From Escherichia coli (GTDB lineage Bacteria > Pseudomonadota > Gammaproteobacteria > Enterobacterales > Enterobacteriaceae), in assembly GCF_016903815.1 (NCBI RefSeq), contig NZ_CP069974.1: a stretch of 64,000 nt of DNA. One strand, written 5' to 3'. Positions 55,940 to 63,456 of this stretch are shown in pieces. The notes beneath the pieces are model-generated. The model made no database searches. It saw only the letters and a list, made by a program, of their open reading frames with translations, and was not told the DNA's origin. The position numbers and the translations under genes are program-made. How positions within the stretch are numbered: the stretch's first letter is position 1; the number at the start of each line of letters is the position of its first letter.

Positions 55940-56746
55940 TCAGGATAATTGTTTCAGCATCGCAACCGCATCAGACTCCGGCATCGCAAACTGCACCCGG
56001 TGCCGGGCAGCCACATCCAGCGCAAAAACCTTCGTGTAGACTTCCGTTGAACTGATGGACTTATGTCCCATCAGGCTTTGCAGAACTTTCAGCGGTATAC
56101 CGGCATACAGCATGTGCATCGCATAGGAATGGCGGAACGTATGTGGTGTGACCGGAACAGAGAACGTCACACCGTCAGCAGCAGCGGCGGCAACCGCCTC
56201 CCCAATCCAGGTCCTGACCGTTCTGTCCGTCACTTCCCAGATCCGCGCTTTCTCTGTCCTTCCTGTGCGACGGTTACGCCGCTCCATGGGTATTTTCAGT
56301 GTTGCCACCATCGTCTGCAGCTGGCTGACGTACCAGGAGTCAGAGAGCGGAACCAGCCGGTGAGTCTGCTGACCGGCGGGCATTCTCCCCGCCGTCCTGG
56401 CAGCTTTTTCGGTCCGTTGTTTCAGGGTCGCAAGCTGCACAAACGGATACGGAGGCGCAAGCGAAAAATCCCCCCGCGTCAGCGCCAGTGCTTCATTAAT
56501 GCGTGCTCCGGTGTTCCACAGTGTGGCCAGCAGCATCTTGCGGTGCAGATCCGGGACGTAATGGAGCAGGGCACTCACTTCCGGAGCCAGCAGATATTTT
56601 GGCAGTTCATCATGGACCATCGACATCTGGCGAAGTGCCAGAGCTGCCGGATAATCAATGGCAACAGGCAGCGATGCAGGCTGCCCGGCAGAATACACTG
56701 CCGGTACCATGACTGCAGACTGGCTGTGTATAACGGAGCCTGACAT
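55940..56746 (-). CDS. resD: ResD site-specific recombinase (tyrosine recombinase, multimer resolution)
   Basis: 268 aa with C-terminal HTFRHSYA...Y motif. Confidence 0.85.
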   Translation of the reverse strand: MSGSVIHSQSAVMVPAVYSAGQPASLPVAIDYPAALALRQMSMVHDELPKYLLAPEVSALLHYVPDLHRKMLLATLWNTGARINEALALTRGDFSLAPPYPFVQLATLKQRTEKAARTAGRMPAGQQTHRLVPLSDSWYVSQLQTMVATLKIPMERRNRRTGRTEKARIWEVTDRTVRTWIGEAVAAAAADGVTFSVPVTPHTFRHSYAMHMLYAGIPLKVLQSLMGHKSISSTEVYTKVFALDVAARHRVQFAMPESDAVAMLKQLS

Positions 56747-57272
<526 letters not shown>

Positions 57273-57905
57273 AGCACACCTCTTTTTGACATACTTCGGG
57301 TATACATATCAGTATATATTCTTATGCCGCAAAAATCAGCGCGCAAATACGCATACTGCTATCTGGCTTTTAGTAAGCCTTATGTATTTTACCTTTCGTT
57401 ATGTTAACCAATAAAAATTAAAATCTGACTTATAAAAACAAAGCGTAATTACCGCATTCCCGTTTCGTATGGATCCGACTTTATTTGAATAAACGACTTT
57501 CCGGAAGTGTACAACGCTGAGAAAATCATCATATCGCTGTTTTCCGCCCCTGCACGGCGCATCACAGGTCAGGGAAATAACACAACATATAGTGTCATCA
57601 GCAGCTGAATCCGGCACCACATGTTGTGCTTACAGGAAGTGGCGTTGTGTGGGGGGGAGAGGAAGATCCGTAACTGCCGGAAACCGGATCTCAGAAGAGA
57701 AAAAGAAGAGTTGTTGCAAGATAAGCACAAAAAATGGTGGTTTGTTGAGATATGGTAATTATTGCTCAGTGGGCAAAATTCAGAACAGAGTTAGCCTGAA
57801 ATTGCAAAAAACAGGCCAGAAAAACTTTTTTCAGCTCATTTTCATCAACCGGCCTTAAAGGCTGCTTCGGATTTCCTAAATACAGTTTTACATAAGGAAC
57901 ATCGT

Positions 57906-58103
57906 ATGACTGTATTTCTCATGGCCGTTTTCTATGGCCTCTTAAAAACTGGCTCTCTCATTGCCCTACTTGTTGATGCCTATAAAGGCTGGACCTTGTT
58001 CTGGAAGAACTATGATCGACTCCCCCATATCTACCGTTCGCAATGGCGATATCAGCGACGCTTCATTCTCAAAAGAATCTGGAAACGCATCAGAACCGGC
58101 TAA
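57906..58103 (+). CDS. Small membrane protein, hydrophobic N-terminus and basic C-terminus (65 aa)
   Basis: RBS AAGGAA 7 nt upstream of ATG; convergent with HTH gene. Confidence 0.35.
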   Translation: MTVFLMAVFYGLLKTGSLIALLVDAYKGWTLFWKNYDRLPHIYRSQWRYQRRFILKRIWKRIRTG

Positions 58104-58384
58104 GCCGGTTCTTCCAGCAGCATCCCCAACCCGGCCAGCCAGCACAGACAGCACCAGGTGGTGAACACCATTCTGGTCTCGCCGGATTTCCACTTACGGA
58201 TGGTGCGCTCGTCCACATCTAGCCGGTTGGCCAGCTGGATATCTGTGAGCGGGATCAGCGCCCGGACCACGCTGACTTCACTGGCTGAAGGTGCCATCCA
58301 GCTCTCGCCCGAGCACAGTGTTTCAGGGTTAAATTTCTCTAGTTCTATCAGCCCCTGAACCTGACGGGCATTTTCTGCCTTCAT
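58100..58384 (-). CDS. HTH (XRE-like) DNA-binding protein with hydrophobic C-terminus
   Basis: 94 aa with LTDIQLANRLDVDERTIRKWKSGE helix-turn-helix; 19 bp downstream of the 377-aa gene. Confidence 0.55.
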   Translation of the reverse strand: MKAENARQVQGLIELEKFNPETLCSGESWMAPSASEVSVVRALIPLTDIQLANRLDVDERTIRKWKSGETRMVFTTWCCLCWLAGLGMLLEEPA

Positions 58385-58403
58385 ATGCGGTTAACCTTTC
58401 TGA

Positions 58404-59537
58404 TCAGGATTGCGACACACTTTGTACACGATGGGCAAGACGGCGCGTTTCTTCCACGGCCCTGAGTTCATTTGCTTTTTCTATCATTTCTGCGGTTGGT
58501 TCAGAAAGTTTTTCAAAAAACTCCTTAAACCTCTTTGCAACTGACTGCAGAGAAACACTGTCAGTTCTCGCTGTTTTAAGATTGGTGTAGACGAGGCGGG
58601 AAAGGGGTTTGGTCAGTTCCTTCCGTTCCATGTATCGTTTGAAGATCCAGAGATAAATATCAACCAGTTCCAGCCCGGCACTCATCGTTCCCGACTGGAA
58701 GACAAGCGGTTTTGCTGGCATGTTCTTCATATCCATGACAGGCAAACCCGGCCCCAGTGCCCACGGCTGTTCGCGGATCTGGTAGTAAAACTCGTTCAAC
58801 TCCCGCTGGGTGGTGTTGAACTGTGACTGCTGGTCAACAATGATATCTGCTTTCCGGTTCGGTGCCCCCAGACGAGAGCAGATCCCGTGCAAAACGGACT
58901 GAAAACCAATCATATTGGGCATGATCTGCAACTTTTCCTTATTGGTTTTGCAGTTGTACCCCAGCTCATCAAAGTTGACCATCGCCCAAGATAGGGCATC
59001 GGTAATGAGTTCAACTGAACGGGCATCACCCAGAGAGTGAACGCGCTGAAGCAGCACTCCACAAACCTCACTGAATAATGAGCAAGAACGTTCATCATGA
59101 GCCTCAAGACGGGCACGCCACGCTTTTTCAGCCAGCTCATCATCAAACAGATTAGACAGATTCAGCAGCAGGGGATAGCGCAGAGGGGTCCAGTAGGCAC
59201 TCCAGGGCACAACCGGATTCAGTCCCTGATCAAACACCTGGTCGAAGAACGAAATAATGGCGTGATCGCGCTTAACCACCTGCCAGATATCAAACCGTAT
59301 CCGGTGATTTTTCTGCAGGACCAGCAGCGTATCCACAACTTCTGAAAGGCGGTGCACGCCCAGTTCCGCAGCGTGCAGGCGCTCCACGCCCAGAGTTTTG
59401 CGTAATGCGGCAAGATCCGCTTCAGCAACCTTATCTAGGTCAGCCTCTGAGGACAGTACTCCGTAGGAGAGGATTGGCTGGGTTTTGTCAAAAAGGTTTC
59501 GGCCAGTCTGGCCTGTTTCATCCACATAAAAGTGCAT
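58404..59537 (-). CDS. DUF3800-like protein (377 aa), function unknown
   Basis: N-terminal FYVDETGQTG (conserved D-E motif), size in family range; assignment by recall only. Confidence 0.55.
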   Translation of the reverse strand: MHFYVDETGQTGRNLFDKTQPILSYGVLSSEADLDKVAEADLAALRKTLGVERLHAAELGVHRLSEVVDTLLVLQKNHRIRFDIWQVVKRDHAIISFFDQVFDQGLNPVVPWSAYWTPLRYPLLLNLSNLFDDELAEKAWRARLEAHDERSCSLFSEVCGVLLQRVHSLGDARSVELITDALSWAMVNFDELGYNCKTNKEKLQIMPNMIGFQSVLHGICSRLGAPNRKADIIVDQQSQFNTTQRELNEFYYQIREQPWALGPGLPVMDMKNMPAKPLVFQSGTMSAGLELVDIYLWIFKRYMERKELTKPLSRLVYTNLKTARTDSVSLQSVAKRFKEFFEKLSEPTAEMIEKANELRAVEETRRLAHRVQSVSQS

Positions 59538-59799
59538 TCAGATATCCTTTTCAAGGCAGGAGGAAAAGAAACGGCATAATTCAAATCAATGTAAAACCTT
59601 CCTGTTGCCGGCTGCAAGTGATCCTCTTAAATGAGTTTTCGGATCTAAGGAAGAGAGAAGAGGGATTATTGTATGAATGGCACAAAAAGCGACGGATTGT
59701 TGCGGTGAATAGATTATTGCTTAGGAAGCAAAATTTATAGTAATTGATAACTCTAATGCAATTAAACAGCGACCCCATCAGGGGTCACCGTAATTTTGA

Positions 59800-62700
59800 T
59801 CAGCGATGTTCAAACCGCGCCACTGGAGTATCAGTGATTTCCATCTCTATTTCCCAGAGCGTTTTCATCACACCTTCAAGTGGATCGTCGCTGCTGCGGT
59901 AGAAGGTATTGAAAAGGGTTCCATCCGGATACCTGAACAGCCTGAGTTCACCAAAGGATTCAGCACTGACCATAAGCGAAAACTCCTGTTCGGAATTGAG
60001 GACAAGGTAAATAAGACAGTTATTGATCCTGAAGGGCAGAGAGCGGCTACCCCTGGCCGATACATCAACATGTATGCTAAACGCGTCATGCCTTTCCGGC
60101 TGATAGACCAGTTCCCTCAGTTCCTCGCTGAAGCGGGAACCATAGATCACCAGAATGTAGTTATTCTGATCAGCGGACCGTTGCGCGACTTCCATTAACA
60201 GCGTTTCGAGGTTATTGACCTCAATCGTTAATTTAGCCTGTGACTGCCACAGTACATAATGCAGTCTGCGGAGAATATTTCTGTTCACTTCTGATACCGA
60301 AGGGAAATCTCCGTAGTCAGTCTGATTAAGCTCTCTGGCAACATACTCTTTGGAAACACCAACAGGAATATATATCGCCAGCCAGTTGCGATCACATTCT
60401 GAATTTTGAGTAAACGTGAAGTATTTAAGCAGAACATCTTCAGACAATGCCCCAGGAAGTTCATTTGTAAGACGAGCATCAGTGTTTCTCAGTCGAGCCT
60501 GGTCTACTTCAGCAGCAACGATATCTGCCGTTTTACTACGACTGAATACATCTATGTATTTATCCAGAACATCATTAAAGAACACCACATTCGTTGCATA
60601 ATCCGCTTCTGAAATGATATAACCTTCATAGGGAACTGAAGGGTCTCGTTTCAGTCGTTTAAGAATAGAAATTATTCTGTCTTTACTGGAATAGGAAAAC
60701 ACCCCTCCAGCCAGGGCTTCATTAACACGCTGTGTAACCTGCTCCGCAGGCCTTGCGAGCTTTATAGCCAGCAAGGCAAACGCCCCGTAGAGACTCCCTA
60801 AATCTTCATATTCCCCTGTATACATACGCCCGGGAATGTAAGGCCTTTCATTATATGAGTTCATAACCTCAATGGTTTCTGATAACCCGCTGTACCAGCT
60901 TGTATTCGTATGCAGATTGCAGTGCTCAATTCTCAGTATCATGTCAATGATATCGACAGAACGTCTGAATGCAGGCGTCAGCGTGTCATGTGTATCTCTA
61001 TCTTCATATAATTCAGACATAATGAGATGATTCACAAGATCGGCTAAGTCTATATTTTTTTGCGATTCAAAATGAGCAATAAGATACCCTGCCATTAACA
61101 ACCGCAAATCGGATAAGGCATTTGCAAACATAATGGACAAAGCGGCATCTTTTTTATACTTGCTGCCCCTGAGTAACATATTCCACTGCGGTTCTGTCTC
61201 CTTCAGGGACAGATAATCCGGAGTCAGGAAGAAACTGTGCCAGCGGTACTCTTCCTCCCAGTAACGTGTAAACCGGCTCTGATTAAACCAGAGGCAGAGA
61301 ACGTCGTGAGCATATCGCACGGAAGAGGCATTATCGGCAACCACTGACGGAATAAGAAGCCTGGCGGTATTATGCAGATGATACATCAGGCGGCCAGTAG
61401 AATCTTCACTCCCGGGTTTGCCAGTGATCGTGGTCATACTCCAGCCTTCCCACAGTCCGATATACCCGCGGATAAGGGCCTGGTGAGTCAGCTCCTGGCT
61501 GGCCGAGAGGGGGCCCCCCAGTCCCGCTTTCCACTCGTTTAACACATGCCACACCCTGAAAAGCGAGAGTAAAAACTGTCTGAAATCGGTAAAACACGTG
61601 CTCTGTGTTTTTCTGTACACACGCAATGGAATGAGCATCGATTCACGGAAATATTCGCCTGAATATTCCGTTGATTTTACGGATTCACGAAAAAACTTTC
61701 TCAATTCATAATGGAATGAATCGCTGAAAGTATGGCTAAAACCTGATTCTTTTACTTCATCCAGATAATTTTTATCGACCTCGTAATTGTAACTTCTTTT
61801 GATAGAGGTATAGGTATCTGTTAATCGTTCAATCCCTGTTCTGAAGACGCTAATATTTTTATCGTTAAGCGCATCGTAAGCCTCACCAAAGAAATCAAAA
61901 GTAATATCATCCAGATCCCTTTTGTTCTCAGGGCGCCCTGTTACAATACAACGACGCAATAACCACCGCCACAATCCTGAAACAGGCTTGACATTTCTCG
62001 ATGACAATAAAGTCAGTTCACCAGAACGAACACCAAAGGAGGGCAGAATGATAATTTCCGCATCCTGCCCATCTACCGCCTCTAGCCTTCTCAGTAGGAA
62101 TAAAAAAGGCCTTATATAAATATCAGTAACAACATCACCTTTACTGATATTAGATTTAACATGAAGCATATCGTCTTTCTCAGAAATTGAGTAAGGCAGT
62201 ATTTTAATATTACCGAGGTAATTTTGACCTACATGACCCCCCGGGTAACGCAGCCACGCCTGAATATATGCTTTTTGAATGTAGTCATCCACTATCTGAG
62301 ATAAAAAAAACTTATTCATTAGTCGATCGCGTTTGCTCTCATCCAGGACATTCAGACTGGAGACGAAGAACCAGATAGACAGAATAATATTGAAAAGCAT
62401 CCACACAAAAGCTGTTACGGCAAAAGAAGTATTAAGATATCCGTCACCTATAGATAACGTCATACCGCCCAGCACGACAAATGCAGCCAGTGAAAGACCA
62501 CTCAGGCCCGCAAACATATATCCGGAATGAAGTTGATACGCGGACTGAATATGGATCCTTGCTGATTTCTTTTGAAATAAAACACTTATAAGCCCCACAA
62601 CCAGCGGAAATACAATACCGATTATAGTCAACTGGCTACCCAGTAAATTAGACATCCAATCTGAAAGCTTGGTAATGCCCTTAAAATGCTGCACAGCGAA

Positions 62701-62919
62701 AGGTAGCAATACAGGGCGAAAATATTCGACCACGCCAACAGCCCCGAAGGCTGCGGACCATAGAACCAGCATAGCCCGGACGTAATGGGTGGAGCAGGAA
62801 ACAAGTATTCTCTCCACCGGGTTCCAGCGAAGTTTTTTGTAATCCCGGTTCGACTTCAGGCTCCGTCGGAGTTCAGCTCTCACCTGCCATGAGACACTTT
62901 TCAGAAGTTTTCCAAACAT
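59800..62919 (-). CDS. Large multi-pass membrane protein (1039 aa) of unknown function, AT-rich gene
   Basis: Uninterrupted 3.1-kb ORF; ~4 hydrophobic helices in the first ~190 aa, ~850-aa soluble region without recognisable Walker, HNH or PD-(D/E)xK motifs by eye; AT-rich by eye relative to flanking backbone. Confidence 0.7.
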   Translation of the reverse strand: MFGKLLKSVSWQVRAELRRSLKSNRDYKKLRWNPVERILVSCSTHYVRAMLVLWSAAFGAVGVVEYFRPVLLPFAVQHFKGITKLSDWMSNLLGSQLTIIGIVFPLVVGLISVLFQKKSARIHIQSAYQLHSGYMFAGLSGLSLAAFVVLGGMTLSIGDGYLNTSFAVTAFVWMLFNIILSIWFFVSSLNVLDESKRDRLMNKFFLSQIVDDYIQKAYIQAWLRYPGGHVGQNYLGNIKILPYSISEKDDMLHVKSNISKGDVVTDIYIRPFLFLLRRLEAVDGQDAEIIILPSFGVRSGELTLLSSRNVKPVSGLWRWLLRRCIVTGRPENKRDLDDITFDFFGEAYDALNDKNISVFRTGIERLTDTYTSIKRSYNYEVDKNYLDEVKESGFSHTFSDSFHYELRKFFRESVKSTEYSGEYFRESMLIPLRVYRKTQSTCFTDFRQFLLSLFRVWHVLNEWKAGLGGPLSASQELTHQALIRGYIGLWEGWSMTTITGKPGSEDSTGRLMYHLHNTARLLIPSVVADNASSVRYAHDVLCLWFNQSRFTRYWEEEYRWHSFFLTPDYLSLKETEPQWNMLLRGSKYKKDAALSIMFANALSDLRLLMAGYLIAHFESQKNIDLADLVNHLIMSELYEDRDTHDTLTPAFRRSVDIIDMILRIEHCNLHTNTSWYSGLSETIEVMNSYNERPYIPGRMYTGEYEDLGSLYGAFALLAIKLARPAEQVTQRVNEALAGGVFSYSSKDRIISILKRLKRDPSVPYEGYIISEADYATNVVFFNDVLDKYIDVFSRSKTADIVAAEVDQARLRNTDARLTNELPGALSEDVLLKYFTFTQNSECDRNWLAIYIPVGVSKEYVARELNQTDYGDFPSVSEVNRNILRRLHYVLWQSQAKLTIEVNNLETLLMEVAQRSADQNNYILVIYGSRFSEELRELVYQPERHDAFSIHVDVSARGSRSLPFRINNCLIYLVLNSEQEFSLMVSAESFGELRLFRYPDGTLFNTFYRSSDDPLEGVMKTLWEIEMEITDTPVARFEHR

Positions 62920-63225
62920 AGATATCCTGCGTATTACATAAGAAATTTTATGAATAATAAGCGGTAGGAACCTTTTTTTCTCTGGAAAATGTCACCCGAT
63001 ACCCTTCATACAGGCTTTGTCATCCTAAAATCCGGTTTAACCTTTTTTCGGATCTCCGATAAAAAAGAAAGAAATAGAGATATGCATAAACATATGCCTG
63101 GCATCTACATATGCTACCGCTATACATATGCCACACATCTGCCTATACTAAACATATGCACACACCCGGTGCTTTGAATATTCCGGATATGTTTCACATA
63201 TCCATATGCTCGGGAGAGAAAGAAC

Positions 63226-63456
63226 ATGAGAACCGTATCGATATTTAAAAATGGCAACAACCGCGCCATCCGTCTGCCTCGTGATCTGGATTTTGAGGGG
63301 GTGAGCGAGCTCGAGATCGTCCGGGAAGGGGACAGCATCATCCTGCGCCCCGTCCGGCCAACCTGGGGATCATTCCTAGAGTACGAAAAAGCCGATCCAG
63401 ATTTTATGGCGGAGCGCGAGGATGTTGTCAGCGACGAAGGGCGATTTAACCTGTGA
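63226..63456 (+). CDS. vapB: VapB/VagC-type antitoxin (AbrB/SpoVT fold)
   Basis: 76 aa MRTVSIFKNGNNRAIRLPRDL...; overlaps vapC start. Confidence 0.85.
   Translation: MRTVSIFKNGNNRAIRLPRDLDFEGVSELEIVREGDSIILRPVRPTWGSFLEYEKADPDFMAEREDVVSDEGRFNL

Follow-up and report, generated by a model that had tools for sequence, protein, structure and literature searches.

Between the ccdAB and vapBC toxin–antitoxin loci of a multireplicon IncF plasmid of Escherichia coli (NCBI RefSeq assembly GCF_016903815.1, contig NZ_CP069974.1) lies a 5.9-kb segment encoding a 1039-residue membrane protein, a 377-residue DUF3800 protein, a 94-residue helix–turn–helix (HTH) protein and a 65-residue membrane peptide. We analysed this segment within a stretch of 64 000 nucleotides, referred to here as the window, and found that it is made up of two independent cassettes, one holding the gene for the large protein and the other the three smaller genes, which are bounded by a shared repeat and sit in a plasmid hotspot for cargo, where other plasmids keep defence genes. 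The genes, taken from the list of open reading frames (ORFs), and the flanking backbone loci are:

59800..62919, minus strand: gene for the 1039-residue membrane protein (ORF list)
58404..59537, minus strand: DUF3800 gene, 377 residues (ORF list)
58100..58384, minus strand: gene for the 94-residue HTH protein (ORF list)
57906..58103, plus strand: convergent ORF of 65 residues (ORF list; annotated by the NCBI pipeline PGAP as WP_000215657.1)
55940..57272, minus strand: backbone flank with ccdA, ccdB and the gene for a ResD-like tyrosine recombinase (ORFs and RefSeq annotation of an identical plasmid segment)
63226..63869, plus strand: backbone flank with the vapB–vapC toxin–antitoxin pair (ORFs and annotation)

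The large gene is separated from the DUF3800 gene by 262 bp and the DUF3800 gene from the HTH gene by 19 bp, and the 65-residue ORF overlaps the 3' end of the HTH gene by 4 bp, tail to tail. An earlier annotation made from the sequence alone, hereafter the original prediction, had listed the same four ORFs, both spacings and the ccdAB and vapBC flanks, and the coordinates agree exactly. It had also placed the island where plasmid F carries pif, which is borne out by F itself (NC_002483), in which pifA–pifC lies directly upstream of ccdA; our segment occupies this same ccdA-proximal position, the cargo slot of the RepFIA backbone between vapBC and ccdAB–resD. The description of the segment as AT-rich holds, modestly, for the large-gene module (59647..63044), whose guanine plus cytosine (GC) content of 43.7%, against a window mean of 52.1%, falls in the lowest ~5% of 3.4-kb windows, but does not extend to the DUF3800 block, at 49.1%. 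At least 80% of 57300..63200 is present at high identity in 171 PLSDB plasmid records, where the annotations read only hypothetical or DUF3800. Among clinical E. coli, IncF plasmids count as major carriers of antibiotic resistance, and the segment stands on hundreds of sequenced plasmids as ‘hypothetical’.

Independent cassettes and their shared boundary repeat

The genes for the large, DUF3800 and HTH proteins had been presented in the original prediction as one candidate module, and a single three-gene defence or abortive-infection system, acquired as a unit, would be in keeping with their adjacency on one strand and with the sharing of the whole 5.9-kb segment by 171 plasmid records. We regard this as very improbable, and reject it on the distribution of the genes across loci and the edges of the BLAST blocks. 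When the DUF3800, HTH and small-ORF sequences were sought by tblastn in more than 20 loci carrying the large protein at identities from 92% to 22%, they were present only in the same plasmid lineage, with no co-occurrence outside it. Pairwise BLAST comparisons resolved the segment into two blocks, 59636..63055 with the large gene and about 57692..59635 with the three smaller genes, which occur independently, each being found without the other and with sharp junctions at the repeat. An Enterobacter contig (L012; comparator loci are given L numbers) is matched at 92.8% over 59636..63055 and then runs directly into a homologue of 57498..57766, so that the ~1.9-kb DUF3800 block is precisely absent from it, and NZ_CP010139 joins the large-gene module to the ccdA-type repeat in the same manner. 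The DUF3800 block, for its part, is found in many plasmids, including pAPEC-O1, in which the homology begins exactly at the core of the junction repeat with other DNA to its left. In Klebsiella virulence plasmids vapBC is followed by DUF3800 (79.5% identity), HTH (64%) and a convergent small ORF, without the large gene. The vapBC–ccdAB slot of the E. coli IncF plasmid NZ_CP082825 holds an HEPN nuclease gene, a hypothetical gene, a DUF3800 gene (79%) and an unrelated 170-residue gene, with neither the HTH gene nor the large gene, and in an IncI plasmid (L028) DUF4238 replaces DUF3800 directly upstream of a 71%-identical HTH gene and the small ORF. The two blocks also differ in GC content, as given above. 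A precise, high-identity empty site was not found among the plasmids compared.

The genes are further separated by a region upstream of DUF3800 that is its own and by the following hairpin, which was read by eye and was not called by a consensus terminator scan; the consensus promoter and terminator scan returned fewer promoter-like sites than in shuffled sequence.

59771..59786, minus strand: terminator-like hairpin GACCCC-TGAT-GGGGTC, 14 nt past the stop of the large gene, followed by GCTGTTTAATT; weak T-tail

The boundary element itself is ~65 bp long: a CT-rich tract leads into the inverted repeat AGATCCG-N13-CGGATCT. Its copies in the segment, the third of which was located at 57664–57691 by a pattern search and a relaxed scan, are:

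63028..63085, minus strand: copy 1, CT-rich tract and AGATCCG-N13-CCGGATT; in the spacer between vapB and the divergent large gene, 136 bp upstream of the latter
59619..59680, minus strand: copy 2, CT-rich tract and AGATCCGAAAA...GGATCA, the right arm degenerate; 109 bp upstream of the DUF3800 gene, at the junction of the cassettes
57664..57721, minus strand: copy 3, CT-rich tract and AGATCCGGTTTCCGGCAGTTACGGATCT; ~400 bp upstream of ccdA, at the distal end of the DUF3800–HTH–small-ORF cassette

The 11-mer AGATCCGAAAA occurs twice in the 64-kb window (0.06 expected), at 59636–59646 and 63045–63055, and both occurrences coincide exactly with the ends of the large-gene block. It is exactly at the repeat core that homology between plasmids breaks off: that of L012 stops at 59636 and at 63055, with its large-gene module fused to copy 3 on the ccdA side; that of the IncF plasmid L030 to the DUF3800 block ends at 59630, in copy 2, with a further block boundary at 58483, and its backbone homology stops at 57703; and the vapBC-flank homology of L029, a Klebsiella plasmid, and of L030 begins at 63044. 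Twelve copies of the repeat, from IncF, IncI, Klebsiella, F, Enterobacter and Pantoea sequences, were aligned. Outside the window the repeat lies at 15045 in L001, 9947 in L012, 14876 in L014, 6691 in L028, 5574 and 7865 in L029, 7829 in L030, and 7091 and 11923 in F (L039), and in every comparator examined it stands at module boundaries. The two copies in F are upstream of a TIR-like operon and between pifC and ccdA, those in the Klebsiella plasmids are between vapB and DUF3800 and past the small ORF, and further copies are found in the IncI plasmid, the Enterobacter contig and a Pantoea allii contig. The repeat core is present on at least 3564 PLSDB plasmid records.

We considered whether the 11-bp repeat was a target-site duplication, which was rejected because the motif recurs at many module boundaries within a longer repeat and no precise empty site was seen, and whether the element was a terminator, which was rejected because neither strand has a T-run after the stem. 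Its positions suggest instead that it may act as a site of cassette exchange, and a resD-like tyrosine recombinase gene adjoins the cassette slot. Module exchange bounded by short sites is known from integron cassettes, with their attC sites, and from the pdif modules of Acinetobacter. The arrangement described here resembles both in that copies of a short inverted-repeat element delimit separate gene modules and a tyrosine recombinase gene lies alongside, but the element looks unlike attC and unlike the 11-6-11 XerC/D sites, having 7-bp arms, a 13-nt spacer (7-13-7) and a preceding CT-rich tract. Such a repeat offers a handle on the swapping of cargo in plasmid defence hotspots and could be used to mine further unannotated cassettes.

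That the slot holds variable accessory cargo, with phage-defence genes on other plasmids, had been anticipated from its position and is supported by pif, by PifA together with a TIR-like gene, and by the HEPN nuclease. In Klebsiella plasmids the neighbours of the DUF3800 cassette are a 96-residue gene, a gene matching the TIR-like PADLOC candidate family PDC-S35 (E = 7e-66) and PifA (E = 1e-290). The same 96-residue gene and a 299-residue ‘nucleotide-binding protein’, which is the PDC-S35 match and also matches TIR effectors (E = 4e-13), stand beside pifA in F (NC_002483, L039 7217–10671) and in the Klebsiella plasmid L029 (7991–11444). F also keeps a fragment of DUF3800 (residues 266–358, 61% identity; L039 4297–4575), and with this fragment and the PDC-S35-type gene beside pifA, the pif region of F looks like a decayed form of the Klebsiella arrangement.

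The 1039-residue membrane protein

The large protein belongs to no described family. It matched nothing in Pfam, NCBIfam or PADLOC (the last at E ≤ 1), and a profile of its family searched against the sequences of the PDB gave only two spurious matches. We nevertheless collected 107 homologues, from close to distant, and at E ≤ 0.001 the family comprises 791 clusters at 50% identity, nearly all of 1030–1150 residues and aligning from end to end. It is present on 422 plasmid records and was absent from all 50 697 phage records searched. Neither its sequence nor its fold revealed a nuclease, ATPase or other catalytic motif, and among the known effectors with transmembrane (TM) helices (CBASS/Pycsar, S-4TM, Kiwa KwaA, Zorya and the retron 2TM proteins) none was matched in PADLOC at E ≤ 1. 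The gene occurs alone, with varied neighbours and without a cognate signalling partner.

An AlphaFold2 model of the protein (mean predicted local distance difference test score, pLDDT, 86.4; predicted TM-score, pTM, 0.72) and the alignment of its relatives define two regions of particular interest:

62350..62784, minus strand: four-TM region, residues ~46–190 (hydropathy, model helices and alignment)
59803..60612, minus strand: predicted capsid-like domain, residues ~770–1039 (location inferred from the secondary structure of the model)

The four N-terminal TM helices of the original prediction are supported both by hydropathy and by the model, which place them at about residues 46–67, 92–116, 134–158 and 164–190. 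TM2–TM4 form the most conserved segment of the protein, with invariant Q96, T98, P105, G109, Q116, Q129, S132, G133, W173 and N177 (columns read from a 48-sequence alignment), and the conservation score is 0.62–0.75 per segment in the TM region vs 0.34–0.52 elsewhere. From hydropathy and the positive-inside rule, the topology would be N-in, four TM, C-in, with both termini and ~850 residues in the cytoplasm and with predicted periplasmic loops of about 24 and 5 residues.

For the large soluble region the original prediction could assign no motif, and this is now superseded by a predicted HK97-fold (capsid-like) domain. Among the 60 top matches in a structure search with the model, more than 30 were capsid proteins or encapsulins, and the others were helical-repeat proteins, which fit the central helical region. 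In a Foldseek search of BFVD, which is an independent method with an independent library, all of the named top-50 matches were capsid or head proteins, the best with E = 1.5e-5, over 270–300 aligned columns and with a target TM-score of up to 0.52. In the model, residues ~770–1039 form a 32-residue helix (771–802) followed by a mixed alpha/beta region of 13 strands, mostly at pLDDT 88–97, and conservation is lowest over the C-terminal ~250 residues. The likeness to phage major capsid proteins, encapsulins and the satellite capsid homologue Ccm lies in this predicted fold; the large protein differs from them in that no sequence similarity was found and in that 770 residues of membrane and helical region are fused to the domain. 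Near the large gene there are no genes for portal, terminase, protease or cargo proteins, its neighbours being plasmid backbone and defence genes. Because the neighbours are of this kind, and because neither a capsid family nor any phage record is matched in sequence, we conclude that the gene is not a capsid gene.

The large protein, we propose, is probably a new anti-phage protein that is encoded by a single gene and anchored in the membrane, in which the fast-evolving capsid-like C-terminus would be the sensor and the conserved TM module the effector or the coupling to the membrane. Its cytoplasmic N-terminus, four TM helices and long helical region would lead to the cytoplasmic HK97-fold C-terminus, and this last domain may use capsomer-like contacts to recognise a phage head-assembly component, be it major capsid protein, scaffold, protease or portal. 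The signal would then be relayed through the helical region to the four-TM module, which might disturb the membrane, leading to abortive infection, or retain head components there. In a more far-reaching form of the proposal, which we consider unlikely as a whole, an exapted capsid protein would serve as an immune receptor that switches the four-TM effector by homotypic contacts, and the ~65-bp repeat would be the exchange site through which defence cassettes move between enterobacterial plasmids. Mouse Fv1 is a restriction factor derived from a capsid protein, and a receptor of this kind would be its prokaryotic counterpart.

The same predicted fold might instead belong to a non-killing decoy, tethered to the membrane, that would poison head assembly by co-assembling with phage capsomers or capping them, in the way that satellites use capsid homologues of their own to redirect the capsids of their helpers. 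The TM helices would then be only an anchor, in which the strong conservation and the invariant polar residues Q96, T98, Q116 and N177 would be unexpected, and one tethered domain would have to contend with hundreds of capsid subunits per particle; we consider a decoy distinctly unlikely. Equally, the inner-membrane location, and the carriage of the gene on plasmids, an integrative and conjugative element (ICE) and a prophage, would suit a protein that acts at entry, stopping or attacking incoming phage or plasmid DNA or excluding mobile elements, with the capsid-like fold as mere scaffold. There is a precedent for membrane-localised defence at injection sites in the membrane-bound nuclease SNIPE (10.1101/2025.11.03.685801). 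The large protein, however, has no nuclease, ATPase or catalytic motif and its predicted periplasmic exposure is minimal, and a block at entry seems to us rather improbable.

The genomic neighbours of the homologues, of which two to four were checked per locus, count in favour of the proposed immune role. In Kangiella and Aliikangiella the homologue is embedded in a Type I restriction–modification (R–M) operon, in the order hsdM–hsdS–X–hsdR, its start abutting the hsdS stop and its stop overlapping the hsdR start by 8 bp; at 57% identity, the homologue diverges faster than hsdM and hsdR, at 74–78%. In Enterovibrio it lies directly downstream of Hachiman HamA and HamB (E = 1e-122 and 1e-195), in Pantoea allii it adjoins a PifA homologue (E = 6e-266), and in a Salmonella ICE it follows McrBC. 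A short integrase gene precedes it in Pectobacterium (L032), with a KAP NTPase gene before that, and in Pantoea stewartii (L003), with an AAA_15/21 ATPase gene before that, and SIR2 or PIN genes are found nearby in these loci and in Vibrio. In E. coli a 45%-identical homologue (78 member sequences) is flanked by icd and by the int/xis genes of a lambdoid, e14-like prophage, in the icd–intE slot where e14 of K-12 carries ymfD–ymfE–lit. In all, association with defence recurs at ~8–11 of the ~25 distinct loci. We conclude that the protein is a conserved four-TM protein with a predicted capsid-like fold that recurs beside or inside defence systems.

In Pantoea stewartii and Pectobacterium the integrase gene is a 200-residue Phage_integrase-domain gene directly 5' of the homologue (L003 6122–6724, L032 8122–8724), an arrangement which suggests a second, chromosomal hotspot of the same logic.

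A non-immune protein, either an ordinary membrane protein or the decaying remnant of a domesticated capsid gene carried along by mobile elements, must also be considered, since some relatives are labelled ‘MFS transporter’ or ‘chromate transporter’ in the source databases, several loci have no defence context, and five copies are pseudogenised. These last are five of the 16 genome copies, which are split by frameshifts or stops that may be sequencing errors (L014, L015, L021, L022 and L026, from Pantoea allii, Pantoea rodasii, Alteromonas, Psychrobacter and a Vibrio). Split copies are common for costly accessory genes, and they count also among the observations in favour of the proposed explanation. 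There is moreover no Pfam or NCBIfam transporter domain and only four TM helices are present; the full-length architecture is kept over ~790 clusters from 22% identity upward, which argues for selection; and the gene is found repeatedly in or beside defence systems. A non-immune protein is accordingly improbable in our view.

As a stand-alone gene of defence islands the large gene fits a known kind, although its architecture is seen in no described system. It shares with pif of F the backbone position directly upstream of ccdA and, as proposed, the character of phage-excluding cargo, and PifA homologues adjoin both its own homologue (Pantoea allii) and the DUF3800 cassette (Klebsiella), but there is no relation in sequence or domains: in contrast to PifA, a KAP P-loop NTPase, the large protein lacks an NTPase motif and matched neither PADLOC PifA nor Pfam KAP_NTPase. 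The anticodon nuclease PrrC is embedded in the Type Ic R–M locus prr, in the order prrA–prrB–prrC–prrD. The Kangiella and Aliikangiella homologues, lying between hsdS and hsdR with coupled frames, occupy the same embedded position, but they bear no relation to PrrC, the large protein showed no nuclease or NTPase domain, and most members of its family lie outside R–M operons. With Lit and CapRel it would share a trigger of the same class, the proposed one being head assembly, and its E. coli homologue occupies the lit slot of e14; both proteins respond to phage capsid protein (PMC9712102). Lit is, however, a soluble metalloprotease and CapRel a fused toxin–antitoxin, and neither has a capsid-like fold or TM helices. 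The literature searched yielded no architecture combining a four-TM module with an HK97-fold domain, no capsid-like domains in defence proteins, and no link between these genes and the anti-phage effect reported for urinary F plasmids.

If the large protein is anti-phage, a widespread family of ~790 clusters, with an architecture of no described system, would be added to those known, with relevance to phage therapy against plasmid-bearing strains; a capsid-fold domain in a bacterial immune protein would be a new case of a virus-derived part turned on viruses. The proposed capsid sensor is directly testable with escape mutants.

The DUF3800 cassette and further cargo of the hotspot

The DUF3800 label of the original prediction is upheld by a Pfam match (PF12686, E = 1.5e-5) that covers the full model (positions 1–148 of 149) over residues 2–301. 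The fold is RNase H-like, with a beta1-beta2-beta3/alpha/beta4/alpha/beta5 core that carries carboxylates on beta1, beta4 and the C-terminal helix, and the carboxylate set is intact, the invariant residues being D6/E7, D83, D235 and E290/D293 on beta1, beta3, beta4 and the C-terminal helix. The motifs of the family are an N-terminal DE and a C-terminal QxxD (PMC7736814), and the first of these, D6–E7, is invariant here. Weak matches to BrxL, PA2171 and FtsZ (E of 0.015 or worse) were dismissed as noise. We regard the protein as the candidate effector of the second cassette, and as a new family member in a new partnership. DUF3800 serves as the effector domain in type VII retrons, and TPR–DUF3800 proteins are associated with Cas12a2 (PMC7736814, PMC10910872); with these the present protein has in common the Pfam family, an RNase H2-like fold and the DE motif at the N-terminus. 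It differs from them in its partners, which are a small HTH protein and a membrane peptide: there is no reverse transcriptase-sized ORF and no CRISPR array in 57200..63300, no msr/msd RNA, and no DUF3800 RNA motif. For the latter, structured RNAs DUF3800-I to DUF3800-XI are described in Rfam (Weinberg 2017), and a scan of the same interval with cmscan (E ≤ 1) returned only two unrelated weak matches and none of these RNAs. The regions upstream of five DUF3800 genes have ~105 bp in common, only among close relatives.

The 94-residue protein had been called an XRE-type HTH protein, and this label is only weakly backed, with HTH_3 at E = 0.23, VC1465_fam at E = 1.8e-4 (below the curated cut-off) and phrog_8351, whose function is unassigned, at E = 3.8e-13; the HTH lies at about residues 47–70, and the protein is a probable transcriptional regulator. 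It carries a conserved hydrophobic C-terminal tail, FTTWCCLCWLAGLGM; the tail (58100–58160) is strongly conserved and rich in Cys and Trp, MVFTTWCCLCWLAGLGM. The 65-residue ORF has one N-terminal TM helix and a basic tail, LPHIYRSQWRYQRRFILKR, with a conserved basic motif, and is conserved together with the HTH gene; because its frame is kept in diverged plasmids (identity of 71% in L028, the IncI plasmid, and of 40% in L029 and L031 from Klebsiella) we consider it a real gene, in agreement with the membrane peptide that had been predicted there. PADLOC, NCBIfam, PHROGs and Pfam gave nothing useful for either protein. The two may interact at the membrane. Homologues of the HTH protein (64–71% identity) follow DUF3800 in the Klebsiella plasmids and DUF4238 in the IncI plasmid. 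An obligate type II toxin–antitoxin pairing of DUF3800 with the HTH protein is at odds with this distribution, in which DUF3800 is found without HTH and HTH also with DUF4238. The pair may be a regulatory unit for whichever effector lies upstream, such as DUF4238, and the DUF3800 nuclease, with its own promoter region, would be a separate defence or addiction effector. A single DUF4238 protein from the P2 hotspot is reported to protect against T7 (Rousset et al. 2022; PMC9122126). The likeness to that system is that DUF4238 stands in the place of DUF3800 above the HTH and small-ORF pair of the IncI plasmid; the gene is, however, absent from the window, and the IncI protein has no PADLOC match and is likened to the tested one by domain family only.

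A role in plasmid addiction, as a toxin–antitoxin-like module, or in housekeeping nucleic-acid processing could be read from the setting of the DUF3800 cassette among the maintenance genes ccdAB, vapBC and resD, from the small peptide, which is like small membrane toxins in size and shape, and from the occurrence of DUF3800 relatives on ~2500 plasmid records. At 377 residues, however, the DUF3800 protein is larger than typical type II toxins, the gene order and the convergent peptide are atypical, and the domain is an effector in retron and CRISPR contexts; the same HTH and peptide pair, moreover, also follows the anti-T7 domain DUF4238. Such a role appears unlikely.

We thus favour, at a probability of about 0.55, the explanation that the IncF cargo slot holds two independent candidate defence cassettes and that the large protein is a stand-alone, capsid-sensing anti-phage protein; both cassettes would be anti-phage or, more broadly, anti-mobile-element. 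As in the original prediction, the combination could be matched to no named system, here with PADLOC, NCBIfam and Pfam. Several findings weigh against the favoured explanation. None of the island's genes is covered by a model of PADLOC 2.0, its candidate (PDC) families included, and the literature searched makes no mention of the three protein accessions. The capsid-like fold comes from a predicted model, its placement at residues 770–1039 is indirect because the search output did not give the aligned residues, sequence-level similarity to capsid families was absent from Pfam, PHROG, PDB and phage records, and a common fold is no proof of capsid binding. Approximately one-third of the loci (for example in Kosakonia, Photobacterium, Shewanella, Pseudoalteromonas and Bermanella) have no recognisable defence or mobile-element neighbour among the two to four genes checked at each. 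In the DUF3800 subfamily the C-terminal motif is an invariant E290-x-x-D293, a change from QxxD in Pfam to ExxD, and the homologues examined at 79%, 68% and 50% identity lack the HTH partner, so that the pair is not obligate. Finally, the repeat could be an operator, an insulator or a mere hotspot of homologous recombination rather than a dedicated recombination site.

A pair of genes, for an ‘HEPN family nuclease’ and a ~255-residue hypothetical protein, was observed 5' of DUF4238 in L028 (1767–4842) and 5' of DUF3800 in L030 (4548–5834); neither gene has a PADLOC match, and we count the pair as an additional candidate cassette of this hotspot. Between ccdA and the small ORF, ~630 bp (57273–57905) contain no annotated gene; this stretch matches the IncI plasmid at ~80% (over 57447–58269) and the Enterobacter contig L012 at ~70% (over 57498–57766). 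On a plasmid of the same type (L001 12732–17266), just past what would be the right end of the window, a gene for a 712-residue AAA ATPase lies downstream of vapBC, preceded by a copy of the boundary repeat, and then come a hypothetical gene and a gene for an ‘S-4TM family putative pore-forming effector’; this segment resembles one more defence-type cassette of the array.

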